Below are positions 31,189 through 64,000 of a stretch of DNA of 64,000 bases, piece by piece. The notes under the pieces were generated by a model. That model had not been told where the DNA came from. It did not search any database and saw nothing but the letters and a program-made list of their open reading frames with translations. The position numbers and the translations under genes are program-made. The stretch comes from a virus, in the IMG/VR virus record IMGVR_UViG_3300037313_001714, positions 32,001 to 96,000 of that record; one strand, written 5' to 3'. Numbering within the stretch: position 1 is the first letter of the stretch; each line of letters starts with the position of its first letter.

Positions 31189-32406
31189 TCAGCCGAAGAT
31201 GCGCTGCGCCAGGCCATCGGCCACTTCGCGGTCGACCTTGGACAGCTTGTTGATGAAGGCCAGGTTCAGACCCTGGCGGAAGCTCGCGCGCATGACACCG
31301 ATGCGCGCCGCGTTGATCAGGGTGCGCGGCGAGATCGTGTCGCTGATCTTGGCGCCGTCGTACGACTGACGGATCAGCGAGGCGAACTCCACCATCTTGT
31401 CGGCGTCGGCCTTCGTGAGCTTGCAGTGGTTGATCAGGATCTGGCTCTCGGCCGCCTTGTCCATGTACTTCTTGTGGATCACCATCCCGAAGCGGTCGTA
31501 GTTGGCGCTGTTCTGGATCAGCGTGCCTTGGTACAGGCCGGTCTCGTCGCCGCTGCCGTTGGTGTTGCCCGTGGCGACGAAGCGGAACATCGGGTGCGGC
31601 TTGACGATCCGCATGTCTTCCGGCGCTTCTTTAATCACCAGTGACTTACCCTCCAAGACCGGCTGATAGACCGCCAGGACGCTCGGCATGCCGAAGTCGT
31701 ATTCGTCGGCGCAGTACACCCAGCCATTGAGCATGGCGAGCGGCAACGGCCCGAGCTGGAACTCGGTCTGGCCGCCCTTGACGATCCACTGCCCGAGGAT
31801 GTGGCTCTCTTCGGTGTTCACCGTGTGCTGCACCCGGATGAACGGCCGGTTGGTGCGCGCGGCCACCTGCTCGAGCATCTCGGACTTGCCCGAGCCCTTG
31901 TGGCCCCACAGCAGCGTCGGGATGTTCAGCTCCATCGCGAGGATCACGTTCTTCAGCTCGTCGATGTCGTAGACATAGTTGTCCGACACCGCCGGCACCA
32001 TGTCCTGCTGGTCGTGGGCGCTGATGGTGGAGATGTTGATCGGGTCGCCGCGGGCGGACAGCGCCGCCTTCACCTTGCCCAGTTCGAACACCTCGTGGAG
32101 GTGCTTTTTCACCACCGAGCCCTTCGGGATCAGCTCCACGACCTTGGCTGCGGTGGCGGTGCCGCTCATGGCCATCACCGGTTCGACAGCCGCGGGCTGC
32201 GCTTCGCCCTGCGTGGCCTGGGCCTGTGCGGCTTGCTGGCGCTTTTGCTCCAGCAGCTGCTTGGCCATCTCCGACAGAAGCGGCTGGCCGGGGTGCTTCG
32301 CCTGGTAGTCGGCGATCGTCATGCCCGGGTGCGCTTCCTTGAGGTGACGCTGGATGGCGTGCTCCAGCGCCCCGCATTCAGCGCAGCGAATCTTTCCGTT
32401 GCTCAC
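31189..32406 (-). CDS. MoxR/CobS-like AAA+ ATPase with N-terminal C2H2-like Zn finger
   Basis: CAECG...HL...H; GHKGSGKS Walker A; ADEYD Walker B; ATGNTNG; DRF; SPRTL. Confidence 0.88.
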   Translation of the reverse strand: MSNGKIRCAECGALEHAIQRHLKEAHPGMTIADYQAKHPGQPLLSEMAKQLLEQKRQQAAQAQATQGEAQPAAVEPVMAMSGTATAAKVVELIPKGSVVKKHLHEVFELGKVKAALSARGDPINISTISAHDQQDMVPAVSDNYVYDIDELKNVILAMELNIPTLLWGHKGSGKSEMLEQVAARTNRPFIRVQHTVNTEESHILGQWIVKGGQTEFQLGPLPLAMLNGWVYCADEYDFGMPSVLAVYQPVLEGKSLVIKEAPEDMRIVKPHPMFRFVATGNTNGSGDETGLYQGTLIQNSANYDRFGMVIHKKYMDKAAESQILINHCKLTKADADKMVEFASLIRQSYDGAKISDTISPRTLINAARIGVMRASFRQGLNLAFINKLSKVDREVADGLAQRIFG

Positions 32407-50156: not shown

Positions 50157-53100
50157 TCAGAAGTTGCTGCCGGTGAACAGTGCGTCGGCAATGCCTCGGA
50201 TCACCACCAGATCCAGGTGGAGGAGGTCGAACGCCTCGCTGGCCGTCAGGGCGCCGGCCACCAGCACGCTGCCGGTGATCTGGGTGCTGTCCGGGTCTTC
50301 CGTCGCGACGAGGTCGACCAGCCCGCCGTGCTCGAGCACGCCCGCGAAGCCGTCGGCCAGCTGCTCGATCGCGGCGACCACGCCGGCCACCAGCACGTGC
50401 AGGTCGCCCACCAGGGTGTCGGCATCCTCGGTGGCGGCCGCGCTGCCCTGCACCAGCACGCTGGCGCTGATGTTGGCGCGGTCCAGGCCCGGGTCTTCGG
50501 CGCCGGCCAGGTCGCCCGAGACGAGCACCGAGACGCTCGCGCTCGCGCTGTCGGGGGCTTCGGTGAGCGCCATGCCACCGTCGACGATCACCTGCGCCGT
50601 CACCGGGCCGAAGGTGTCGGCGCCGCTCTCGCCGGCGGCCAGGTCGGCCGTGACATAGACGGTGGCGGCCGCGGCCGCGGTGTCGCTCGCCTCGGTCGCC
50701 GCCAGCGCCCCGCTCACCAGCACCGACGCTGCGATGGCGGCCGCATCGGGCGCTTCGGTCGCGCCCACGCTGCCCGTGACCAGCACACCCAGCGTGCCGC
50801 TTGCGCTGTCCGCGCCCTCGGTGGCGGCCAGGCTGGCGCCGATCCAGCCGGTGGCGCTGGCGGCGAAGGTGTCGTTGGCTTCGCTGGCGGCCAGGCTGGC
50901 CTGGACCAGCACGCTGCCGGCGATCTGGGCCGTGTCGGGCGCTTCGGTGACGTCCAGCAGGCCCTGCACCAGCACGCTGGCAGCGAAGGCCGCGACGTCT
51001 GGCGCCTCGGTGGCGGCGAAGCTCGCGTTGTCCAGCAGGACCACGCTGGCCGCGAAGGTGTCGGCGCCCTCGCTCGCCGCGAGTGTGCCTTGCACCAGCA
51101 CGCTGACGCTGGCTGCCGCGCTGTCGGCGTTCTCGGTGGCTGCCAGCGTGCTGTTGATGGTCTGCAGGCCGGTGCAGTCGATCGCGGCGGTGTCGGCCCC
51201 GCTCTCGCTGGCGGCCAGGCTGGCATTCCACCAGGGCCCGGCCGCGCTCATCGCCGCGCTGTCGAAGCCGCCTTCCACCGCGCCCAGGCTGCCTTGCACC
51301 AGCACGCTGGCCGCCAGGCTGGCCGTGTCGGCGCCGCTTTCGCTGCTCGTCAGGTCGCCGGACACCAGCACGCCGGCGCTGAAGCTCGCGCTGTCGCTGG
51401 CCTCGGTGGCGGCCAGGCTGACGTTGGTGAAGTTGCTGACCTGGATGCTGGCGCTGTCCGCGCCCTCGGTGGCGGCCAGCGCGCCTTGCACCAGGACGGC
51501 CGCGCTCAGGCTGGCCGTATCGGCGTCTTCGGTGGCCGCCAAGCTGGCGTTCCAGTACGGCCCTTCCGCGGTGGCGGCCGCGGTGTCGGGGCCGCTCTCG
51601 GTGGCAGCGAGGGAACCCTGCACCAGCACGCTGACACTGGCCGCGGCGCTGTCGTTGCCTTCGGTCGCAGCCAGGCTGGCGTTCCAGTACGGGCCACTGG
51701 CCGTGATGGCCGCGCTGTCGGCCGCTTCCGTGACCGCCAGGCTGCCCTGCACCAGGACGGCGCCGGTCATCGCGGCGGTGTCGGCCGCTTCGGTGACGGC
51801 CAGGCTGGCATTCCACCACGGGCCCGTCAGGGTGCCACTGGCGGTGTCGCTGCCCGACTCGGTGGCCGCCAGCGAGGCGTTCCACCAGGGACCGGCAACC
51901 GTCACGGCGGCCGTGTCGGCACCTTCGGTCGGGGCGAAGCTCGTGACCTGGACCAGCACGCTGGCCGACAGGGATGCCGTGTCGCTGCCCGACTCGGTGG
52001 CCGCCAGCGTGGTGTTGTCGGCCGTGGACAGGATGTTGAAGTTGTCCCACAGCGCGGTGGTGGCGCTGGCGCCGGTGGTCGCGCCGGCGTCGCCGGTGAC
52101 CAGGCCCTGGTAGAGGTTGCTGACCGGGAAATTCAGGCTGCTGGTGGCCAGCGTCGCGAAGGTGCTCCACGAGCCGGCCGACCCGCTGCCGTTGTCCGCC
52201 GCGGTGGAGAGCGTCAGCGTGCCGCCGGACTCGCTGATCTGCAGCCACTGGTGGTTGGTCGCATCGTACGTGGCGTCCGTGCCGATCGTCGTGTACGTGC
52301 CGTTGTTGGCGTACTCGGCGTGCAGCACGCCGTTGCTGGTGCCGTCCGAGTTCCAGCCGAAGCTGATGACGTTGCCGTCGTCGAACACCTGACTGGACGG
52401 CAGCAGCTGGATGTGCGCGGTGGCGCCGCTGCTGATGCTGCCTTGCGGCTTCTGGGCCAGTCGGACGGTGACGCTGCTGCCGGTGAGGTCGAACGGCGTC
52501 GTCGTCATGACGCGGGCATAGCCCGCTGCCGAGGCGTTGTACGTCTGCTGCAGGACTGTCAGGCTGCCCGAGGTGGTGCCCGGGGTGTTGCTGCAGCTGG
52601 CGTCGTTGGCCTCGGCCCAGTGGGTGGCCAGCGTGGCGCTGTCGAAGGTGTCGGTGAGGGTCGCGGCCTTGTTGGACGCCGTCGTCGTGGTGAACGTCGG
52701 CGTCGTGATCGTGCAGTTGGTGCCGACCTTGAACAACCAGTCGGCGCTGTTGCTGCCGCCGGCCGTCACCGTCTCCATCGCCACCGAGACGAACAGGTAT
52801 TCGCCTTCGAGGGTGAGGGAGCCTGGCGACCACGTGACCGAGGCGTTCTGGACCGTCGAGGTGTTGCCGGTGATGTTGCCGGTCTGCAGCGTGGCGCTGG
52901 TCAGCTCGCGCAGGCTGATCCCGCCGCCTTCATCGATCGACGCGAAGACGCGCACCCGGATCGCATCCACCTGGCTCGAAGCCAGCGTGGAGATCATCCC
53001 GAAGTTGAACGTCCAGTTGGTGGCGGCAAAGGTGCCGCTGTAGACCTTCTGGGTGCGAAAGGCGTTGCCGTTGGTGTCGTCGATCGTCGCCGCCGGCAAC

Positions 53101-53297
53101 ACCGTCGTGCCGAACGAAGTGGAGGCCTGCTTGGTGCCTTTCTTGAACGGCGCGTAGCGGCTGGCCGCGGTCTTGGCGACGGTCCAGCCGGCCGTCGAGT
53201 TGGCCGTGGTGGGCGCGGTGCCGCCATCCTGGATCGACGCGCAGTGGCCCGCGCCCGGCGCGAGCGTGTCTGGCAGCAGATACCAGGTGGTGGACAT
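50157..53297 (-). CDS. Virion fibre-like protein with about 28 tandem ~21-aa repeats
   Basis: Ala/Ser/Thr-rich; repeat (A/G)SLAATE-x2-3-D(T/S)A-x3-(SVLVQ|GPWWN); in tail module. Confidence 0.75.
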   Translation of the reverse strand: MSTTWYLLPDTLAPGAGHCASIQDGGTAPTTANSTAGWTVAKTAASRYAPFKKGTKQASTSFGTTVLPAATIDDTNGNAFRTQKVYSGTFAATNWTFNFGMISTLASSQVDAIRVRVFASIDEGGGISLRELTSATLQTGNITGNTSTVQNASVTWSPGSLTLEGEYLFVSVAMETVTAGGSNSADWLFKVGTNCTITTPTFTTTTASNKAATLTDTFDSATLATHWAEANDASCSNTPGTTSGSLTVLQQTYNASAAGYARVMTTTPFDLTGSSVTVRLAQKPQGSISSGATAHIQLLPSSQVFDDGNVISFGWNSDGTSNGVLHAEYANNGTYTTIGTDATYDATNHQWLQISESGGTLTLSTAADNGSGSAGSWSTFATLATSSLNFPVSNLYQGLVTGDAGATTGASATTALWDNFNILSTADNTTLAATESGSDTASLSASVLVQVTSFAPTEGADTAAVTVAGPWWNASLAATESGSDTASGTLTGPWWNASLAVTEAADTAAMTGAVLVQGSLAVTEAADSAAITASGPYWNASLAATEGNDSAAASVSVLVQGSLAATESGPDTAAATAEGPYWNASLAATEDADTASLSAAVLVQGALAATEGADSASIQVSNFTNVSLAATEASDSASFSAGVLVSGDLTSSESGADTASLAASVLVQGSLGAVEGGFDSAAMSAAGPWWNASLAASESGADTAAIDCTGLQTINSTLAATENADSAAASVSVLVQGTLAASEGADTFAASVVLLDNASFAATEAPDVAAFAASVLVQGLLDVTEAPDTAQIAGSVLVQASLAASEANDTFAASATGWIGASLAATEGADSASGTLGVLVTGSVGATEAPDAAAIAASVLVSGALAATEASDTAAAAATVYVTADLAAGESGADTFGPVTAQVIVDGGMALTEAPDSASASVSVLVSGDLAGAEDPGLDRANISASVLVQGSAAATEDADTLVGDLHVLVAGVVAAIEQLADGFAGVLEHGGLVDLVATEDPDSTQITGSVLVAGALTASEAFDLLHLDLVVIRGIADALFTGSNF
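50200..52015 (-). repeat. Coding tandem repeat array (about 28 units)
   Basis: E-x2-4-D units counted in translation; exact 31-bp DNA repeat at 51844-51874 and 51979-52009. Confidence 0.85.
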
Positions 53298-54940: not shown

Positions 54941-55003
54941 GGCGGATCAGGCTGAACTGTAGCGGCAAACGCCCCGGAAATCAAGTCACCGATGACTTAT
55001 GCA

Positions 55004-58000
55004 TCAGGGCAGCCACCAGCAGCCCGCGGCCACCACCAGGCACAGCAGCTGGATTTCGCTGTCGTAATAGCCGGTCGTGAGGTGGCGCAGGTTCCAGTCG
55101 AACAGCGAGTTGAGCATCGACTGATAACTGGAGTCGGTCATCATCGCCAGCATCGCCGGCGCGACGAACGAGGGGCTGGAGCTGCCGTCGGTGTTGCCGG
55201 TGCCCTGGCGGTTGCCGCTCATGTCGTAGCCGTCGCGGATGCCGATCAGCCAGTCGTTGGTGCCGGTGACGGTGCCGTTGGCCTGCGACTGGAAGAAGTT
55301 CGCCATTCGCATGGTGTAGGTCTTCAGCGTCGCGTCCGCGGAGAACACGTAGTCGGTGCCGAAGCGCCACGGGTCGCGGCAGGCGTTCCAGTAGTAGTAC
55401 ATCTCCGTGGGCGTGCCGTCGCCGATGCCGCCCGGCGACAGCCCGGGGCTGTTGCCGTCGCAGTTGATGGCGAAGTCCGGCAGCAGGCCGGTGGACGGGC
55501 TGTAGGTGGTCTGCAGCTCGTTGATCAGGCTCTCGCACTTCGTGACGCAGGTGTCCCAGAAGGTGTCGCCGGTGGCCTTCTTGAACGATCGGAAGTGGCC
55601 CAGCATCCAGTCCGAGGTGCGGCTGTTGACGGCGCTCTGGATGCGCGGGAAGCCCAGCGCGTTGAAGTTGGCCGACTTCATCGCGTTGATCTTGCCGATC
55701 GCCTCAGCGCGGTAGTTCCACTGGCCGCTGGTGCTGCCCCACTGGGCGTCGGCCATCAGCAGCGCCAGCGCCATGTCCAGGTCGCCATCCACCGCGTTCC
55801 AGCCGCCGCCGGCGCTGCTGCCGTTGGCGTACAGCCGCCAGTCCATCAGGTACTGGCTCACGCCCGGGATGTAGGGGTCGTAGGCGTACGCGGGGCGCGC
55901 CTTGACGGTGGCGTACAGGCCGTCGAAATACTGGCGCGCGGTGCCGTCGTGGCCGGCGAACAGCACGCACATCAGCATGGCGTAGCCCATGCCCTCAGAG
56001 ACCGTGCAGTAGGTCGGGTCGGAGAACTGGTCGAGGTAGCCGCCGGCGACCACCTGCGAGGCCGAGACGATGCGCGCGAGCTTCCAGGCGTCGTACTGGG
56101 CGGTGAGCTTGGTGTCCATCGCCGAGTTGGTGTAGTTGGTCGGCTTGATGCCGGCCGCGTACGTCTGGATGCGGTTGCCGTAGGGCATGCTCACCGTGCC
56201 CGGTGCCGGCGCCGGCGCAGGTCCCGGGGCGGGCGCGGGGCCGGGTGCCGGGGCGGGGGCCGCGGCGCCCATGGTGGCGTCGGCGTAGCCGGCCTGCTGG
56301 GCGACATAGTTGGCGGCGTTGACGCGGTCGGTCGGCGTGCCTGCATTGTTCTTGCGCAGGATCATCGCGTACATGTAGCCGTACCAGTCGTTCGACTCGG
56401 CCACGCCCTGGTCGCCGTCGATCATGAAGCCGCTCGAGCCGGCTGTGGCGGTGCCGCAGGCGAGCGTCTCGATGGTGCCGCCGTTGATCCGCACGCCCAG
56501 CGAGCCGCCGTCGTGGTAGCACACCACCGTGTTGTCCTGGCCGAAGCGGATCTGCGCGGCGGTGGTCAGCGTCACCCGCGTGTTGCCGATGCCGACGGAG
56601 AACTCGACGTTGTTGTTCGGCGTGATGCGGATGCGGTAGCCGGCGTTGGCGGTATTGGCGTCGCTGTAGAGCGTGCGGGTGATGCCATTGCCCGAGTAGT
56701 CCTGCGAGCACCAGGCGAACATGAAGCCCGAGGTCGAGCCACCGCCGCCGATCGTGCAGGGGAAGTTGGCGTAGATGTTCAGGTAGTCGACCCCGGCGTT
56801 GGTGGTGTTCCACACCGGGTTGCTCTGGAGATTGTTCTGGGTGATGTCGTTGCCGCGGCCCGACTTGTCCTTCCAGGTGCGCACGCCGCTGCCGGGGCCG
56901 GCCGCTTGCGCGCCCGTGCCGGTGTTGCCGATCAGCGTGGTGTGGTCCTTGGCGGTGTACCAGCCGCCCTGCGCGCTGTTGGCGAAGAAGGCGGCGATGG
57001 TGGCGTCCGAGACCGGCGTGCCGGTGCCCGGGGCCGGGGCGGGGGTCGGCGCCGGCGTGGGAGACGGTGCCGGGGCGGCCCCGGACAGCGTCGCGCCCGA
57101 CAGCGACGCCATGTACTTCTCCAGCACGTTCAGCTCGGAGGTGCTGGGCGTGCCGGTGCCGACGATCGCGCCGTAGAATTGGCCGAGCGGCGCCGCAGTC
57201 TCGAAGAAGTTCACGTAGCCGCCCAGCAGGTGCATCGCGTTGTAGGGCGAGGCGGCGAAGGTGCTGGCGCCGCTGGCGACCTGGGCGCCGTTCTGGCGCA
57301 GCACCTGCGCGCCCTGCGCGTGCGTGAGCGCGAACACCTGCGGCGTGTTGACCGGCGGCGGCGTGCCCTTGAGCGTCACCGACAGGCCGTTCACGTCGTT
57401 GATCACCGCCTGCGGCGTGCCCGAAGCGAAGCCCAGCTCGGTGCGCTGCTGGCCCTCGTCATTGCCGGCGGCAAAGATGATGCCGCCCGAGGACGAGGCC
57501 GTCAGCGCGTAGCCCGCCACCACGAAGTGCGCATTGGTCAGGTCGAAGGCCATCTTGTCCTTCGGCAGCGGGATCACGCCGGTCTGCGGCACCGTCTTGC
57601 GGCACCAGAAGCCGCGCTGCGGGTAGACCGAGGTGTCCAGCACGTACTTGCCGGCGCTGTCCTGCTGCAAGGTGGGCCGCTGGAACAGCTCGGAGCCTTC
57701 GTTGACGTCCGTGTTGTACCAGTTCAGCATCTCCATCGGGTTGGTGTTGCTGGACATCGCGCCGGTGTCGCAGATCGCGCGCACCGGCCCCTTGAGCGTT
57801 GCCACCTGCGGGGTGGGCAGGTAGTCGGCCACCGCGTCCTGGGCGCGCCACAGCGCGCAGCTGTACTTGCCCACGACGGTCATCGCCGCGTCGGTCAGAT
57901 TGGTCGCGGCGAGCGTCACCGGGTCGGTGTAGGTGTAGATCGTGCGGATCGGGGGCACCTGGCCGCCGTCGGCGCGGGTGTACTGCACCGTGCACTTGGC

Positions 58001-61000
58001 ATTGGCCACCGGCGTGACGGTGTAGGTCGCGGCGCTGTTGGGGCCGGCCGGCAGCGTGATCGAGCCGGCGCTGGTCGAGCCGTTCGAGGCCGTCAGGGTG
58101 ATGGTGAGCGGGCTGGTCAGGTTGCCGCGCGCCTCCACCGTCACGGTGTAGTTGGAGCCGCCGGTGCCGTACATCGGGCCGGCGTCGACGATGGTGGCCT
58201 GGTTGATGCCGGCCACGAACTTCATCACCCCGCCCACCGCCGGCTCGAGCGTCTGGCGCTGGTAGAACTGCGGCGTGTGGTTGATCGGGTAGCCGTGGAT
58301 CGGCCAGTGGTTGCCGCCCATCCAGGTGTAGACCTCGATGCCCTGGCCGAAGGCGTACGTGACGCCGTTCTTGAACTGGGTGAGCCAGTTGGCATTGCCC
58401 GAGTCGTTGGACAGCGGCATGCCGGTCTCGGTCCAGGCGAGGCTCGCGCCGGTGAGGCCCTTGCCGGTGGCCCAGGTCACCACTGGCGTGATGCGGTTGG
58501 TCAGCGTGCTGGTGCTGATCGCGCCGGCCTCGCCGGCGGAGGTGCCCTTGGCGACCTCGACGCTCCAGTCGAAGTGGGCGCCGTCGCTGGCGGCGTCGCC
58601 GTAGCAGTGGAAGTCGTAGATCAGGTTGGGCATCGCCGAGCCCGACGCCGCGCTCTTGTAGTTGGCGATCTGGGTGGTGGTGAGCCAGCCCTTGCTGGTG
58701 ACGATGTTCTGCTCGGCCGCCGACAGCGTGCCGCCCGCGAACGCCGTCACGAGGTACAGGTCCTCCTTGGGCGTGGTGAGCGTCTTCATCAGGCCGAAGC
58801 GGTTCTCCGGGGCCGACTGGCTCGTCTCGTCCAGCAGCTCGTAGACGCAGATCGAGTCGATCGTGCAGTTGGTCGTCGAGACCAGCTCCTGCATGTGCAC
58901 GGCCAGCGACTGGTAGCCCTCCTCGGTGTAGGTCGCGCCGTCGGTGTTCTCGTAGGTGCCGGGGTTGCCGTTGGCGACGTCCCAGTAGATTTCGCCGGCG
59001 TTGAACTCATTGACCGTGACCGGCTTGCCGAAGGTGCCCAGCATGCCGGTGGCGCCGCCCGTGCCGTACCAGGGGTCCGTGTTCAGCGAGTCGTTGGCCA
59101 GGATCGGGTAGACGTGAAAGCCGGTGACGTCCCAGTGCACGCCGGCGTTCTTCATGTACGTGAGGAAGCCGAAGTCGCGGCCGATTTCCGTCAGGATCAC
59201 CCGCAGCGGCACGCCCTGCGCGTTGGTGCCGATCGCGTGCACGGCGTCGGCGATGCCGCGCGCCACGTACGAGATGCTGGTCATCGCCGTGGAGGCGTTG
59301 TAGTTGGTCAGGTCGGTGCCCTGGCCGTTCCAGTCGATCTGGCCGCTCACGTCGGGGCGGATCTGGATCTCGTTCAGGATCTCGAAGTCCTGCACCAGGT
59401 CCTTCATCGCGTTGACGAGCTGGATGGTCTGGTTGTAGGAGTCCGTGTAGACCTGCTGCAGCGTCATCGACGCCGTCGGGTAGATCGTGTAATCCCACTG
59501 GTAACTGTTCTGCAGCACCGCCTGGATCTTGCAGCCGTTGGCCACCAGCTTGCCGCAGACGTCGCGCAGCAGCGTGAGGTCGGCGCCGGCGCCGAACAGG
59601 TCGACCCGCACGTTGCGGAAGTTGCGCGCCTGGCAGATGCTGGCGATCGAGGCGTTGTTGTTCGTCGAGCCGCCGCCGGTGTGGATGTTCACGCCGACCG
59701 GGATCGCGGTGGTGGCAGCGGTGGTGAGCGGGAAGCTCGTGTTGTTGGAGGACCAGCCCACCGGCGACTGCCAGGCGTTGCCGCCGACGTAGACCTTGCC
59801 GCTCCAGCCGGCCGCACGAATCGCGTTCACGGCCGCCTTGGCGAACGACGGCCAGATCGTCATGTCCTCGACGTTGCCGCTGACGAACGGGCTGTTCCAC
59901 GGCGTCGTGCCCGTGCTCGTGGGCATGTCGTGCGGCTCGTTCATCAGCGAGAAGCCGGCCAGCGCCGCGTGCCCCTTCCACAGGTTGGTGACGCGCGTCC
60001 AGAAGTCGGTGAAGTCGGCGACCGTCAGCGTCGCGCCGGTGGCCTTGGCGAAGATGCGGGTGGTGACGGCGCCGGTGCTCGAGTATGGCGGGTAGCGCTT
60101 GTCCGACGGCACCGTGAAGCCGTTGACGGTGCCGTCGGCGTTGTAGATGAAGTCCTGGTAGCGGCAGGAGTTGTGCAGGTCCAGCACCACCTTCACGCCG
60201 GCCGTCAGCGCGTTGTCCAGGCAGGACTGGATGTAGCTCTGGTAGAAAACGTCCAAGCCGCCCTTGACGCCGCCGATGTTGTGCGCGTTCACCACGCTGG
60301 TCGCGGCCGGCGAGGACGCCAGGATCGGCTGCAGGCGCTCCCAGATGATCGGCAGGCGCACCTTGGACACGCCGGTCTGGCGCAGAAACTGGAAGTCCTC
60401 CAGCCGCGGCACCGTGAAGTTGCGGTTCGGGTAGGTGGAGGTGCCGAAGCGGAAGTTGGGCTGGGCCCACTCCATGCCCGACAGGTTGACCCCGAACAGG
60501 TTGTTGCTGGCCGCCTGCTGGGCGATCACGTTGGCCAGGCCGGCGAAGGTGTCGCGCGCCTCGCTGGCGGCGACGCTGGCGTTCACCGTACCCGGCTGGC
60601 TGGCCGCGCTGTTGGCGGTCTTGGCGAACAGCTGGCCGTACAGCGCGCTGCCGTCGGACATGAAGACAAAGGTGTCGCGCGCGTCCGCCGTGGTCGAGGG
60701 CGTCCAGCTCTGGATGTTGTAGCCCGCCGCGAAGCTGTAGCTGTAGGGGCCACCGGTGTGCGGCTGGATCACGTACAGCGTGTACTGGCCGGTCTTCAGA
60801 TTGGTCGGCAGCTGGATGACGTGGTTGTTGCCGGTGAGCGTGAGGGTGGCGATCGAGCCCTTGCTCGCGTCCCAGGCCACCGAGGCGGCGTCGATCAGGA
60901 TCTGCTGCGTGATGCTTGGGTTGAGCAGGTCCTTGTTGGTCAGCTGCTGGGTGCCGGTGGTGGTGACGTTGCCCAGCAGAAGCACCCAGCCGACGCCGTT

Positions 61001-61075
61001 GTAGGTCCAGGTCGAACCGCCGGACGAGAAGATCTGGCCGTTGGTCGGGTTGTTCGGGAAATTGATTGCTGCCAT
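55004..61075 (-). CDS. 2023-aa multi-glycanase tail-region protein: GH5 (split) + nested clan GH-A barrel + two ConA-like domains + GH8
   Basis: GVNLSG, RLP..WERLQP, LDLHN, MNEP, ...YDFHCY, TETG, WMGG (GH5); insert GVNIH, VRVD, ILNE, GFHVYP, VNEF, YELLDE; C-term SEGMGY, DGDLD, WNACR (GH8). Confidence 0.8.
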   Translation of the reverse strand: MAAINFPNNPTNGQIFSSGGSTWTYNGVGWVLLLGNVTTTGTQQLTNKDLLNPSITQQILIDAASVAWDASKGSIATLTLTGNNHVIQLPTNLKTGQYTLYVIQPHTGGPYSYSFAAGYNIQSWTPSTTADARDTFVFMSDGSALYGQLFAKTANSAASQPGTVNASVAASEARDTFAGLANVIAQQAASNNLFGVNLSGMEWAQPNFRFGTSTYPNRNFTVPRLEDFQFLRQTGVSKVRLPIIWERLQPILASSPAATSVVNAHNIGGVKGGLDVFYQSYIQSCLDNALTAGVKVVLDLHNSCRYQDFIYNADGTVNGFTVPSDKRYPPYSSTGAVTTRIFAKATGATLTVADFTDFWTRVTNLWKGHAALAGFSLMNEPHDMPTSTGTTPWNSPFVSGNVEDMTIWPSFAKAAVNAIRAAGWSGKVYVGGNAWQSPVGWSSNNTSFPLTTAATTAIPVGVNIHTGGGSTNNNASIASICQARNFRNVRVDLFGAGADLTLLRDVCGKLVANGCKIQAVLQNSYQWDYTIYPTASMTLQQVYTDSYNQTIQLVNAMKDLVQDFEILNEIQIRPDVSGQIDWNGQGTDLTNYNASTAMTSISYVARGIADAVHAIGTNAQGVPLRVILTEIGRDFGFLTYMKNAGVHWDVTGFHVYPILANDSLNTDPWYGTGGATGMLGTFGKPVTVNEFNAGEIYWDVANGNPGTYENTDGATYTEEGYQSLAVHMQELVSTTNCTIDSICVYELLDETSQSAPENRFGLMKTLTTPKEDLYLVTAFAGGTLSAAEQNIVTSKGWLTTTQIANYKSAASGSAMPNLIYDFHCYGDAASDGAHFDWSVEVAKGTSAGEAGAISTSTLTNRITPVVTWATGKGLTGASLAWTETGMPLSNDSGNANWLTQFKNGVTYAFGQGIEVYTWMGGNHWPIHGYPINHTPQFYQRQTLEPAVGGVMKFVAGINQATIVDAGPMYGTGGSNYTVTVEARGNLTSPLTITLTASNGSTSAGSITLPAGPNSAATYTVTPVANAKCTVQYTRADGGQVPPIRTIYTYTDPVTLAATNLTDAAMTVVGKYSCALWRAQDAVADYLPTPQVATLKGPVRAICDTGAMSSNTNPMEMLNWYNTDVNEGSELFQRPTLQQDSAGKYVLDTSVYPQRGFWCRKTVPQTGVIPLPKDKMAFDLTNAHFVVAGYALTASSSGGIIFAAGNDEGQQRTELGFASGTPQAVINDVNGLSVTLKGTPPPVNTPQVFALTHAQGAQVLRQNGAQVASGASTFAASPYNAMHLLGGYVNFFETAAPLGQFYGAIVGTGTPSTSELNVLEKYMASLSGATLSGAAPAPSPTPAPTPAPAPGTGTPVSDATIAAFFANSAQGGWYTAKDHTTLIGNTGTGAQAAGPGSGVRTWKDKSGRGNDITQNNLQSNPVWNTTNAGVDYLNIYANFPCTIGGGGSTSGFMFAWCSQDYSGNGITRTLYSDANTANAGYRIRITPNNNVEFSVGIGNTRVTLTTAAQIRFGQDNTVVCYHDGGSLGVRINGGTIETLACGTATAGSSGFMIDGDQGVAESNDWYGYMYAMILRKNNAGTPTDRVNAANYVAQQAGYADATMGAAAPAPAPGPAPAPGPAPAPAPGTVSMPYGNRIQTYAAGIKPTNYTNSAMDTKLTAQYDAWKLARIVSASQVVAGGYLDQFSDPTYCTVSEGMGYAMLMCVLFAGHDGTARQYFDGLYATVKARPAYAYDPYIPGVSQYLMDWRLYANGSSAGGGWNAVDGDLDMALALLMADAQWGSTSGQWNYRAEAIGKINAMKSANFNALGFPRIQSAVNSRTSDWMLGHFRSFKKATGDTFWDTCVTKCESLINELQTTYSPSTGLLPDFAINCDGNSPGLSPGGIGDGTPTEMYYYWNACRDPWRFGTDYVFSADATLKTYTMRMANFFQSQANGTVTGTNDWLIGIRDGYDMSGNRQGTGNTDGSSSPSFVAPAMLAMMTDSSYQSMLNSLFDWNLRHLTTGYYDSEIQLLCLVVAAGCWWLP

Positions 61076-61078
61076 GGG

Positions 61079-61885
61079 TTAGCCGTAGTTCACCCACTCG
61101 GCCGAATCGGCGTCGACCGTGTACGTGTAGCGGATGCCGGTGGTGGTATCGAGCCATTCCTGGCCATGCACCGGGTTGGCGGGCGCGGTGGGGCCCACGG
61201 TGAGCGCGACCCCGCCGCTGCCGCCCCCGGGCGGGATGCCATCGAGCTTGGCCTTGTCGGAGGCCGACATGAAGCCGTGCGTGGCCGGCGTGGCCAGCGC
61301 GTGCTGGGTGTCGCCCTGCCCGATGTGCCCGGCCACCAGCGCGTTGATCTTGCCCAGCGCGTCCAGCACCGTGTCGCTGGGCGTCACCAGCTGGCTGGCC
61401 GTCAGGAAGTTGTTGGGCGAGGCGGCCTGCGTCACGCCGGTCAGGGGCGTCGCGCGCACCCGGGTGGCGGTGAAGTACAGGTTGGACAGGCCCTCCATCA
61501 GGCCGTCGGTGCTGGTGATGCCGGCGCCGCCGCCTCCGGACAGGCCGCCGTTGAGCAGCGACTCGATCTGGTACATGGCGGCGGTGAAGATCGCCGCGGT
61601 GCCGACGTCGCCGTTGTTGATCAGCGGAATCTTGTTCGTGTTGGTCTCGTCGCGCACCACCACCGCCGGCGTGAGCGCAGCGCTCACGTCCTGGTAGGCG
61701 CCACTCAGCATGAAGGTGGTGTCGGTGCCGTTGAAGACGGCGTTGGTGGCGACGAAGTACGGCACCTTGTAGGGCGTCGCCAGGAAGATCTGCGACGCCT
61801 TGATGTCGGCCGAGACGTCCTGGCCCGGCACCGTCACGAGCTGCGAGCCGTTGCTGACGTTGCAGGAGAGTTTGAGCTGTGCCAT
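61079..61885 (-). CDS. Tail fibre proximal/adaptor protein
   Basis: STDGLMEGLSNLYFT, HALAT...GFMSASDKAKLDGI, GPTAP.NP..GQEWLD motifs. Confidence 0.75.
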   Translation of the reverse strand: MAQLKLSCNVSNGSQLVTVPGQDVSADIKASQIFLATPYKVPYFVATNAVFNGTDTTFMLSGAYQDVSAALTPAVVVRDETNTNKIPLINNGDVGTAAIFTAAMYQIESLLNGGLSGGGGAGITSTDGLMEGLSNLYFTATRVRATPLTGVTQAASPNNFLTASQLVTPSDTVLDALGKINALVAGHIGQGDTQHALATPATHGFMSASDKAKLDGIPPGGGSGGVALTVGPTAPANPVHGQEWLDTTTGIRYTYTVDADSAEWVNYG

Positions 61886-61956
61886 GCCTACCGGGTCCGG
61901 AATGTCCAGTGTATCACAGTCACCAGTGACTTATGTATAAGGATCGGGAATGCGGA

Positions 61957-62526
61957 TCAGGGATGGCCACCCTGCGCTTGCGGCGGCGGGCTCGGGCTGG
62001 GCGTCGGTGGCTGGGTCGGCGACGGCGGCGCGGGCGTCGGTGCCGGTGGCTGCGCGGGCGTGGGTGCCGGGGTGGTCGCCGGCGGCGGCCCCATCTTGAA
62101 GGCCAGCTTGGGCGTGGGCCGGACCGGCACCGGCGGCTGGCTCGCCGGCAGCGGGTGGGCGTTCTTCACCGCCTTGATCGCGTCGTAGAAGCCCGTCACC
62201 TGCGGCAGCTGGCCGGCGTCCATCGCCTTGAACAGCGCGTCCAGCTGGTCACCCACGCTCGGGTAGGCGTTGCGCCGTGCCACCTGGATGGCCACGTAGT
62301 CGTCATAGGCCTGGGTCTGCGCGTCGCGCAGGTCCTCCCAGGCGCCGCTGGTCACGTTGAACTGGTGGTGGATCGATGGCCGCGGGTTGCCCAGCGTCGG
62401 GTCCTCGCCGAGCACCAGCGTCAGGCCGTCGGTCAGGTTCTGGCGCGCGTGGGCGAGCTGCCCGACCGGCATCACGCCGGTCGACACGAGGTGCGTGCCG
62501 TCATGGACGTAATATTTGAGATTCAT
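61957..62526 (-). CDS. Tail fibre assembly/chaperone-like protein with Pro-rich tail
   Basis: RRNAYPSVGDQLDALFK motif; PAPT repeats. Confidence 0.7.
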   Translation of the reverse strand: MNLKYYVHDGTHLVSTGVMPVGQLAHARQNLTDGLTLVLGEDPTLGNPRPSIHHQFNVTSGAWEDLRDAQTQAYDDYVAIQVARRNAYPSVGDQLDALFKAMDAGQLPQVTGFYDAIKAVKNAHPLPASQPPVPVRPTPKLAFKMGPPPATTPAPTPAQPPAPTPAPPSPTQPPTPSPSPPPQAQGGHP

Positions 62527-62552: not shown

Positions 62553-64000
62553 TCAGCGCTTGACGCCCTGCACCAGCACGCTGGCGATCGAAATGCTGGC
62601 CTGCGAGCTGGCCGCGAGGAAGGTCAGGTAGGCCACCACGGTGCCGGGGCCCAGCCGGATGTAGCCCGAGGGGTTGATGTTGATCATGCCGTTGCCAGTC
62701 TGCTGGCACAGCACCAAGCCCTGGATCGAGGGCGTCTGCGACCCCGGCGGGTAGTAGTCCAGTCGCAGGTTGACCGTCACCGGGATGAAGCCCGAGCCGT
62801 AGCCGATCTCGCCCACCGCCGAGATCACCAGGCCGACGTCCGGCACGTTCGGCGGCAGGCTGAGGTCGAGGCTGTTCACCACCACGATCTGCTCGAAACC
62901 GTTGCCGTAGAAGGCGCCGCCAATCGTGGCATAGCTCGGGATGATGACGGCATTGCCCTGGATCTTCTCGGTGAGCACTGCCAGGTCGCCGATGCGCGCG
63001 CTGTTGATCGCCGCGTCGCCGATGATGGCGTTGTTCATGCACACGGTGGGCACGCCGTTGACGAAACCGACCACGAACGGCGTGACGGCCGGCGAGCCCG
63101 GGTAGGTGGGCATCGCCACGAAGAAGGTCTCGGCCTGCACGCCGAACGCCGAGTGGCCCTGCTTGGGGTCGTAGGCGTCGGGTGTGATGGCCAGCCCGAA
63201 GCCGGAGGCAAGCAGCCGGCCGTCGGCCGAGTTGTAGCCGATCTTGACGGTGTACTCGTTCTGCAGGTTCTGGATCTGCGCCGTCTGGTCGGCCGCCAGC
63301 CCGATCGTGGTCTGCAGGTCGGTGGTGAGCTTGGTCTTGTCCAGGATGCCGTCCTGGATCGCCTGCACGTTCAGGTAGGTGGTCTTGAACGCGATCGCGC
63401 CGGAAGGCTGCAGCTCGGTCAGGCCGAACTGGTCGTAGGCGGCCACCCGCACCCAATAGTTCGAGTTGAACATCAGGTTGTTCAGGACCACCTGCGTGCC
63501 CGAGCCGCGGTACACCTCGTACAGCGTGCCCAGCAGCGCCGTGTAGTCGCCGGCGATCAGGGTGCCGTCGGCGTCGGTGAGGAACACCACCAGGCCGGCG
63601 AAGTCCGCATCGTCGCTGTGCTGGATGTTCACGACCGCCGTCTCCCAGTCGGGCGTCACCTGCATACCGGTGATGGTCGGCGGCGGGTTGTAGGCGGTGA
63701 GCAGCGCCGGCTCGCCGAGGTTGTTGAAGATGTCGCGCATGCGGATGCGAAAGCGCAGCCGGCGCGTGATGCCGTCCTCGGCGTTCTTGCCGTAGGTGTA
63801 GACGTAGCCGTTGACCGTGGTGTACTCGACGCGGCGCGGCGCGGCCGCGGGGTCGTCGTCGTAGTGCCAGACCTCGATCTGGTAGTCCTTGAAGTGCGGA
63901 TCGAGCGCGCCGGCGTTGGCGCCCACGTTGTCCGGTTCGCTGCCGAAGTCGTAGCTGTGGGTGACCGAGTTGTAGCGCCAGGCCAGGTGGCAGTCCGGTC
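62553..64000 (-). CDS. Partial central tail fibre / host-specificity protein J-like (5' end outside window)
   Basis: FnIII-like repeats (Y.VRVAAYDQFG); EYTVKI...ASGFGL...FGVQAE.F...PFVV...MNNAIIGDAAINSARIG (DUF1983-like). Confidence 0.85.
   Translation of the reverse strand, partial: PDCHLAWRYNSVTHSYDFGSEPDNVGANAGALDPHFKDYQIEVWHYDDDPAAAPRRVEYTTVNGYVYTYGKNAEDGITRRLRFRIRMRDIFNNLGEPALLTAYNPPPTITGMQVTPDWETAVVNIQHSDDADFAGLVVFLTDADGTLIAGDYTALLGTLYEVYRGSGTQVVLNNLMFNSNYWVRVAAYDQFGLTELQPSGAIAFKTTYLNVQAIQDGILDKTKLTTDLQTTIGLAADQTAQIQNLQNEYTVKIGYNSADGRLLASGFGLAITPDAYDPKQGHSAFGVQAETFFVAMPTYPGSPAVTPFVVGFVNGVPTVCMNNAIIGDAAINSARIGDLAVLTEKIQGNAVIIPSYATIGGAFYGNGFEQIVVVNSLDLSLPPNVPDVGLVISAVGEIGYGSGFIPVTVNLRLDYYPPGSQTPSIQGLVLCQQTGNGMININPSGYIRLGPGTVVAYLTFLAASSQASISIASVLVQGVKR

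Follow-up and report, generated by a model that had tools for sequence, protein, structure and literature searches.

The 64,000-nucleotide stretch analyzed here (the window; positions 32,001 to 96,000 of the IMG/VR record IMGVR_UViG_3300037313_001714, a virus record of 118,453 bp with terminal repeats) encodes on its minus strand a giant protein (P0001) in which a complete barrel of glycoside hydrolase (GH) clan GH-A is nested inside a GH5 barrel, with a GH8 domain at the C terminus. P0001 is probably a tail-associated, trimeric multi-glycosidase of a lambda-like siphophage, whose nested barrel stems from a duplication of the gene of another protein of the same genome (P0165), and which would cut a beta-glucan-type polysaccharide of the host.

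The nested architecture, already proposed in a preliminary description of this DNA, is confirmed by the split match of the Pfam GH5 model, by a gap in 23 aligned relatives, and by structure models of both barrels. The sequence motifs listed there were all found where they had been placed. They comprise FPNNPTNGQ (aa 6–14) at the N terminus; GVNLSG (195–200), MNEP (378–381; window positions 59933–59944), and GGNAWQ (431–436) in the first part of the GH5 barrel; GVNIH (461–465), ILNE (566–569), GFHVYP (652–657), VNEF (688–691), YELLDE (745–750), and FGL (760–762) in the insert; NLIYDFHCY (817–825), WTETG (881–885), and WMGG (918–921) in the second part of the GH5 barrel; and SEGMGY (1693–1698), DGDLD (1763–1767), and YWNACR (1895–1900) in the GH8 domain. 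Both Pro/Ala linkers (aa 1334–1349 and 1604–1626) are present as well.

The reading frame at 55004–61075 (-) is open over 2023 codons and ends in a stop codon, yielding a product of 2023 aa. Its ATG lies 3 nt past the stop codon of the preceding fiber-like gene, and the start is the same in the relatives P0004, P0002, P0011, and P0012. The most instructive relative is P0004 (1671 aa), which has no insert and is collinear with P0001 over the entire span from residue 1 through the end of the GH8 domain (41–64% identity per module); it reads FPLTDSANNIVYEAH where P0001 reads FPLT-[361 aa]-NLIYDFH. A plus-strand frame of 2398 aa (54992–62188 (+)) runs antisense to the glycanase gene and has no homology of its own. 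It is a shadow open reading frame (ORF) of the coding strand, which has a G+C content of 67%, and a naive longest-ORF caller prefers it over the real gene.

The GH5 model of Pfam (PF00150) matches P0001 in two stretches (E 2.4e-19; 70.3 bits, cut-off 23.5), with profile positions 22–172 corresponding to aa 223–444 and positions 181–267 to approximately aa 815–920. When the protein is scanned by piece, the N-terminal part of the GH5 domain scores 62.6 bits and the C-terminal part 20.6 bits, which on its own is below the cut-off; the 371 residues between the two stretches have no Pfam match at E values up to 10. In an alignment of aa 185–960 with 23 GH5 relatives, of which 15 are short enzymes with one domain and 8 are long proteins with several domains, all 23 relatives show a single clean gap at exactly aa 456–816 (361 aa). 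The hallmark residues of GH5 on both sides of the gap (R240, H301, N379, E380, H823, Y825, E883, and W918) agree with 21–24 of the 24 aligned sequences. The pattern is that of a domain insertion, with a GH5 host domain that is continuous in 23 relatives and a guest that occurs elsewhere as an autonomous domain, in proteins of approximately 360 aa with signal peptides.

A structure model of this 776-residue region places strands 1–5 of the GH5 barrel before the insert and strands 6–8 after it. The GH5 parts are modeled with confidence, and aa 191–455 and 817–960 close into a full (beta/alpha)8 barrel, in line with the earlier proposal that the split halves re-form a GH5 domain. The model was built on an alignment of GH5 relatives only, leaving the insert without alignment depth, because MAFFT aligned GH5-only sequences to the insert, both domains being members of clan GH-A. 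In the model, strand 5 is succeeded by a short helix, past which the chain leaves the GH5 barrel; it re-enters directly at strand 6. Given the standard topology of triosephosphate isomerase (TIM) barrels and the predicted secondary structure, the insert, which is lodged in the alpha5–beta6 loop, would lie on the face opposite the GH5 active site.

The best solved matches of the GH5 part are RBcel1 and Cel5A of P. stutzeri, both members of subfamily 5 (GH5_5), followed by the Cel5A enzymes of Xanthomonas and of fungi. The similarity to Egl of Ralstonia noted in the preliminary description holds only by way of these matches, which point to a barrel of the subfamily-5 endo-beta-1,4-glucanase type with a correspondingly predicted activity. 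Both RBcel1 and P. stutzeri Cel5A are GH5_5 endo-1,4-beta-glucanases that have been speculatively linked to bacterial cellulose (PMC8900817). The solved GH5_5 enzymes (RBcel1, 4ee9; P. stutzeri Cel5A, 4lx4; XacCel5A; and T. aurantiacus Cel5A) are uninterrupted single barrels of approximately 320 aa, whereas the barrel of P0001 is left before strand 6 for 361 residues, has a longer beta3–alpha3 loop, and is set in a phage protein of 2023 aa.

Folded alone (AlphaFold2, 50 sequences), the insert yields a barrel with a predicted local distance difference test (pLDDT) score of 93.8 and a predicted template modeling score of 0.92, in which eight strands alternate with helices and three extra helices follow at the C terminus. 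All its fold matches belong to clan GH-A, which agrees with the (beta/alpha)8 fold that had been postulated for it. The top matches in Foldseek are PslG (5bx9/4zn2) and 5jvk (E 6e-11 to 6e-10; template modeling scores of 0.54–0.59); these PslG/GH39 enzymes have the clan GH-A catalytic layout in common with the insert. A single-sequence search of the PDB with the insert returned only noise, whereas the profile of the insert family retrieved exclusively members of clan GH-A, namely 5jvk (GH39; 5.8e-8) and a GH17-type enzyme (1e-6), then GH1, GH53, GH26, and PslG. No Pfam (E up to 10), NCBIfam, or PHROG model matches the insert, which by its predicted fold and its motifs is a clan GH-A enzyme outside the families of these three databases. 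An assignment to GH39 (PslG-like) was rejected, because there is no Pfam or NCBIfam match, the profile match to 5jvk is partial (residues 19–138 only), and GH39 is tied by Z with many other families of the clan.

When 1.84 billion representatives were searched exhaustively with HMMER, 154 relatives of the insert were retrieved (73 of them at E 1e-30 or better), many of which are complete proteins of 360–390 aa with Sec signal peptides. The residues conserved in the family conform to the pattern of clan GH-A: strand 4 is followed by Asn-Glu and strand 6 by His-x-Tyr, strand 7 contains a Glu, and a Y-E-L-x-D...F-G-L block is located near strand 8. In the model of the insert, N568 and E569 follow the strand at 119–122, and E690 is located within the strand at 242–247; both Glu residues are present in 49–50 of 50 family members. 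The nested copy retains E565, N568, E569, H654, Y656, E690, Y745, E746, and D749. Among bacterial genomes, the family is represented at 27 loci, mostly in Ramlibacter (which includes the best match, with 52% identity), next in Polaromonas, Methylibium, and Aquabacterium, with outliers in myxobacteria, Bdellovibrio, and Bacteroidales. The neighborhood of the closest Ramlibacter homolog contains a sugar ABC transporter and no exopolysaccharide operon, and hence provides no clue to the substrate.

The origin of the insert is most evident from a second copy of the barrel in the same genome, which is 58% identical over aa 446–812 and forms part of P0165, a protein of 549 aa that consists of a clear Sec-type signal peptide, the clan GH-A barrel, a Ser/Thr/Gly linker, and a Big_7 Ig domain. 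In a maximum-likelihood tree of 119 domains, the nested copy and P0165 are sisters (Shimodaira–Hasegawa-like approximate likelihood ratio test, 97), and P0165 (59% identity in this comparison) is nearer to the nested copy than any of the 150 database representatives listed, the best of which is 50% identical. The homology extends from just past the signal-peptide cleavage site of P0165 to the start of its linker and thus covers the whole mature domain. Tree and alignment identify the insert as a duplicate of the phage's own free-standing enzyme gene of the P0165 type. An origin as an intein or another mobile element was dropped, because the insert constitutes an entire enzyme domain that has homologs across the family, and because its boundaries coincide with those of the mature domain of P0165. 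The presence of a gene for a secreted enzyme amid a tail operon is odd in itself; lambda carries K and I at the slot that P0165 occupies between the gpL-like and gpJ-like genes.

The same kind of nesting is present in two other proteins. Numbered against the uninterrupted GH5 domain of P0004, the insertion sites are located after approximately residue 278 in P0001, between residues 211 and 223 in P0003, and near residue 148 in P0027. The module of P0003 is situated in the beta4–alpha4 loop, after the acid/base motif, and that of P0027 in the beta3–alpha3 loop. Pfam also divides the GH5 domains of P0003 and P0027 into two stretches, and the three nested copies fall into three separate, well-supported clades of the 119-domain tree. 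By insertion site and phylogeny, the barrel module entered the GH5 scaffold three independent times, in three different loops. The nested copies of P0003 and P0027 keep the same catalytic motifs as the insert of P0001. In the GH5 host barrel of P0003, the acid/base motif (aa 279–284) reads H-E-P instead of the near-invariant N-E-P, and its chemistry may be altered.

Nesting is only one of several arrangements in which modules of the insert family occur. The module stands ahead of GH5 in P0002 and P0006, behind GH5 in P0005 and P0036, and beside GH8 in P0022, P0051, P0082, and the locus L035; it forms a tandem duplicate in P0017 and P0018. In both P0017 (981 aa) and P0018 (696 aa), the two tandem barrels of each protein belong to one clade, which suggests a recent duplication within each protein. 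The nested arrangement is rare, with 3 cases among approximately 55 proteins of this GH5 subgroup and none among 80 metagenome loci.

Discontinuous host barrels with a guest domain in a loop have been described for the GH10 enzyme Xyn10C/Pm25, in which two CBM4s are inserted at the beta3–alpha3 loop (PMC7848910), the same loop as in P0027, and for the GH5 endoglucanase MtGlu5, which has an inserted carbohydrate-binding module (PMC9063844). P0001 shares this layout with both enzymes, whose host barrels stay functional. Their guests, however, are small, non-catalytic beta-sandwiches, whereas the guest of P0001 is a complete (beta/alpha)8 barrel of catalytic type and nearly the size of its host, and is predicted to enter from the face opposite the active site. 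In a limited literature search, the guests of known TIM-barrel glycosidases were small sugar-binding modules and no barrel-in-barrel glycosidase was found; here, the guest is a complete second barrel of catalytic type in three cases.

The GH8 domain is recognized by Pfam (PF01270) at aa 1677–2013, with an E value of 8e-18 on the whole protein and of 9.5e-20 when scanned by piece (71.3 bits, cut-off 24). Its best matches in the PDB are a Paenibacillus glucanase (5xd0; 1.2e-50) and the chitosanase ChoK of Bacillus sp. K17 (1v5c; 9e-44), far ahead of the cellulase CelA (1e-22). E1694 aligns with the Glu of the SE(A/G) motif of 5xd0 and ChoK, and N1897, in YWNACR, aligns with the Asn of their YNSCR/YNASR motif, so that the chitosanase/lichenase type suggested earlier for this domain is well founded. 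According to a subgroup rule that Adachi and co-workers are said to have formulated in 2004, an Asn in this type of GH8 replaces the Asp base of the cellulase type. The alignments with 5xd0 and ChoK extend over the full length of the domain and have the SEGxGY acid, DGDLD, and the Asn in Y-N-x-x-R in common. By contrast, the known enzymes are free and secreted, whereas in P0001 the domain forms the C-terminal end of a phage protein. Conservation among GH8 relatives extends to the SEG acid, DGDLD, and the loop carboxylates (motifs in 8 relatives), and the domain also matches phrog_1696, a family annotated as tail that comprises giant tail proteins (2.7e-41).

The N-terminal module (aa 1–190) is common to P0004, P0002, P0011, and P0012, which are long proteins of phage type (38–54% identity). 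Its look-alikes in an atlas search are viral clusters, some of them with Mtd_N or Phage_phiTE_241_C (scores 0.84–0.88), and serve as a lead only. A three-copy model of the module, three being the sole stoichiometry modeled, reached an interface score (interaction prediction score from aligned errors, ipSAE) of 0.92, compared with 0.12 for the best of three controls; the runs showed a contact agreement of at least 52% and a pLDDT of at least 80. Among proteins of solved structure, the mark reached by this trimer was attained by 20 of 30 that are pairs of the same chain and by 1 of 23 that are single chains, a calibration that is only rough for a run with its own alignment and three copies. The module may represent a trimeric attachment domain of the fiber type.

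The region that follows the split GH5 barrel (middle region 1, MID1) always accompanies this GH5 subgroup, and the GH5+MID1 cassette is present in approximately 40 metagenome loci. Look-alikes of Laminin_G_3 (0.91) and sub-threshold matches of Laminin_G_2/3 and Big_9 in relatives suggest that MID1 probably combines an Ig-like and a LamG-like domain; the MID1 profile has no sequence match in the PDB. A region homologous to middle region 2 occurs in P0002, P0004, P0011, and others, and no match was found for it in Pfam, PHROG, or NCBIfam. Both middle regions would be beta-sandwiches, as had been surmised. The GH5_5+MID1 cassette is also encountered as a conserved bacterial protein of approximately 800 aa with a twin-arginine signal (MQRREFS...), encoded on contigs of up to 2 Mb (L036–L083; e.g., L037:7857-10301 (+)). 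It appears to be an uncharacterized type of secreted endoglucanase and the likely source of the phage module.

The gene for P0001 is part of a lambda-like tail module, which bears out its reported location among tail genes. On the minus strand, genes for a major-tail-like Ig protein, a tape measure protein, a gpL-like protein, P0165, and a gpJ-like central fiber are followed by a 189-aa gene, the 268-aa fiber-like gene, and the glycanase gene. Beyond the latter are small genes, including one for a virion structural protein, a gene for a protein of 1046 aa with unknown function, and an endolysin gene. Depolymerases of phage tail fibers and tailspikes are likewise encoded downstream of the central fiber gene and have an N-terminal anchor followed by enzymatic modules; the predicted trimer of the N terminus of P0001 would be a further resemblance. 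Classic phage depolymerases consist of a single beta-helix lyase or hydrolase, whereas P0001 comprises three barrels of cellular type, two (beta/alpha)8 and one GH8, one of which is nested. The coordinates of all features are compiled in the table.

Table. Features of the glycanase gene and of other genes of the same phage (window numbering unless indicated otherwise).
Feature	Position	Strand	Basis
Whole gene, P0001	55004..61075	-	Open 2023-codon frame, homology on minus strand
N-terminal module (aa 1–190), putative trimeric tail-attachment domain	60506..61075	-	Common to P0004, P0002, P0011, P0012; three-copy prediction
GH5 barrel part 1 (aa 191–455), strands beta1–beta5; R240, H301, N379, acid/base E380 (59938–59940)	59711..60505	-	PF00150 profile 22–172, column conservation, strand order in model
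Inserted complete clan GH-A barrel (aa 456–816); predicted acid/base E569 (59371–59373), predicted nucleophile E690 (59008–59010)	58628..59710	-	Gap in 23/23 GH5 relatives, own fold model
GH5 barrel part 2 (aa 817–960), strands beta6–beta8; H823, Y825, nucleophile E883 (58429–58431), W918	58196..58627	-	PF00150 second stretch, model
Middle region 1 (MID1; aa 961–1330), probably Ig-like + LamG-like	57086..58195	-	Weak family hints
Pro/Ala linker (aa 1334–1349), middle region 2 (~aa 1350–1603), second Pro/Ala linker (aa 1604–1626)	56096..57085	-	Linker positions; homologous region in relatives
GH8 domain (aa 1661–2023); catalytic acid E1694 (SEGMGY), DGDLD 1763–1767, Asn1897 (YWNACR)	55007..56095	-	PF01270, PDB matches
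Preceding 268-aa gene, weak tail-fiber/fiber-assembly matches	61079..61885	-	phrog_3304 2.3e-5, phrog_33244 7e-5
gpJ-like central tail fiber gene (1561 aa), 3' part, continues past window end	62553..64000 (L007:553-5238)	-	phrog_31 2e-147; Pfam FNIII-A_GpJ, Phage-tail_3, Phage_Tail_Tip
P0165 gene, outside window	G000:C1:99608-101257 = L006:946-2595 (67608–69257)	-	Between gpL-like and gpJ-like genes

The host is likely a soil bacterium of the family Comamonadaceae, of the Ramlibacter or Polaromonas type. The phage modules look borrowed from secreted enzymes of the Comamonadaceae type, because the insert family centers on Ramlibacter and the GH5+MID1 cassettes are twin-arginine proteins. Window positions 58400–59950 also occur undivided on a 16.5-kb contig from a run (X2) of a study other than that of the soil sample from which this genome probably derives; the two sequences differ at 6 of 1551 nt. 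The near-identical phage in X2 stems from a rhizosphere metagenome and is present at high depth, with the paralog located 8.3 kb away on the same contig.

In the mechanism proposed for P0001, three chains would be attached to the tail by their fiber-type N-terminal module, each of them with three retaining or inverting glycosidase sites (GH5_5, nested clan GH-A, and GH8), and the Ig/LamG-like modules and Pro/Ala linkers would space the catalytic domains. All modules would have been taken from secreted enzymes of the host group, and a copy of the P0165 gene would have been duplicated into the fiber gene after the split from P0004-type relatives without the insert. The glycosidases would cut an extracellular polysaccharide of the host, presumably of the beta-glucan type, and thereby allow the tail tip to reach its receptor; plant or fungal matrices, which had also been named as targets, find no support. 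Of the virion-borne, three-site beta-glucan depolymerase envisaged in the preliminary description, the architecture (folds, GH8 type, and tail module) stands, while its placement on the virion and its action on beta-glucans are the probable interpretation of that architecture.

Several observations weigh against this interpretation. The refolding of the GH5 barrel in the 776-residue model was steered by the alignment of uninterrupted relatives, and the insert portion of the same model, with its GH5-only alignment, has a pLDDT of 24–60, from which neither the mutual orientation of the barrels nor the distance between the insert termini can be derived. In the GH8 loop (IGDGTPTE), D1886 and E1891 are conserved in most relatives and lie one to a few residues off the reference Glu, so that the placement of the base is ambiguous. 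The host was assigned by similarity alone, aa 1–190 have no significant sequence match in Pfam, PHROG, or the PDB, and the branch of the nested copy is five times longer than that of P0165 (0.46 versus 0.09), possibly reflecting relaxed constraint. Such a long branch would be expected if the nested barrel were merely a passenger that is losing or lacks catalysis and serves as a spacer or sugar-binding module, leaving two working sites instead of three. The nested copy also keeps slightly fewer of the columns conserved at the 60% level than the free paralog (63 versus 67 of 75). However, none of the 29 columns with a conservation of at least 80% among stand-alone members is altered; these include both catalytic Glu residues, the Asn that precedes the acid/base, H-x-Y, and the YELxD block. 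The motifs are also retained in the two other, independently nested copies (P0003 and P0027). Both findings render a catalytically inert passenger improbable.

The absence of a significant named family for aa 1–190 would equally suit a protein that is not attached to the virion and acts as a soluble enzyme at lysis or as an auxiliary metabolic enzyme, either freeing the progeny from biofilm or feeding the host on environmental glucans. Secreted enzymes of bacteria are where the three catalytic modules and the GH5+MID1 cassette are typically found, a version of the insert with a signal peptide (P0165) is encoded by the same phage, and TIM-barrel glycosidases generally differ from the classic beta-helix fold of tailspikes. 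Yet P0001 itself has no signal peptide, and its gene directly follows the gpJ-like and fiber-like genes and is succeeded by a virion structural gene. Moreover, its first 190 residues are common to other long phage-type proteins and predicted to be trimeric, and its GH8 domain matches the PHROG of giant tail proteins. A function away from the virion is therefore unlikely, although somewhat less so than the loss of catalysis in the nested barrel. Finally, the nesting could be an artifact of assembly or gene calling, for example a chimera in which the fiber gene was falsely joined to the paralog, whose location only 8 kb away might mislead an assembler. But the two copies are only 68% identical at the DNA level, the frame is open throughout, both junctions are bridged in one piece by contigs of two sequencing runs that belong to different studies (one run possibly being the source of this DNA), and in P0003 and P0027, which stem from other data sets, the insertion sites differ; an artifact is thus extremely improbable.

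Depolymerases on phage tails and domain insertions into TIM barrels are already known; unusual are the nesting of one enzyme in another, the origin of the guest from the same genome, and the threefold recurrence. If the reading of P0001 as a tail-associated multi-glycosidase is correct, the phage enlarges its toolkit for the host matrix by copying its own enzyme gene into a fiber gene. If both barrels are active, P0001 would show the tolerance of the (beta/alpha)8 fold to interruption and would supply ready insertion sites for bifunctional engineering. The relatives of the insert point to an uncharacterized clan GH-A family with approximately 150 representative clusters, whose substrate may be the exopolysaccharide of Comamonadaceae. 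More speculatively, in a reading that is less likely right than wrong, the insert would represent an undescribed glycoside hydrolase family of clan GH-A that is centered on Comamonadaceae and their phages, the GH5_5 barrel would be a permissive scaffold (at least three insertions, in three loops), and the nested pair might function as a single machine whose two sites cooperate on a host exopolysaccharide of mixed or branched structure. Such a cooperative pair would offer a natural template for barrel-in-barrel bifunctional enzymes.

Phage records in GenBank did not match the DNA and gave no more than four protein matches, all weak and partial, and IMG/VR contained only distant relatives of the GH5 domain. 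The ORF of 1046 aa at 50157–53297 (-), located between the virion structural and lysis genes, has no match in Pfam or PHROG. The gpJ-like protein of 1561 aa also matches, with aa 99–210, the tail assembly family phrog_32 (gpI-like), which suggests that its gene is a fusion of I and J; this would account for the observation that no separate K and I genes were seen.

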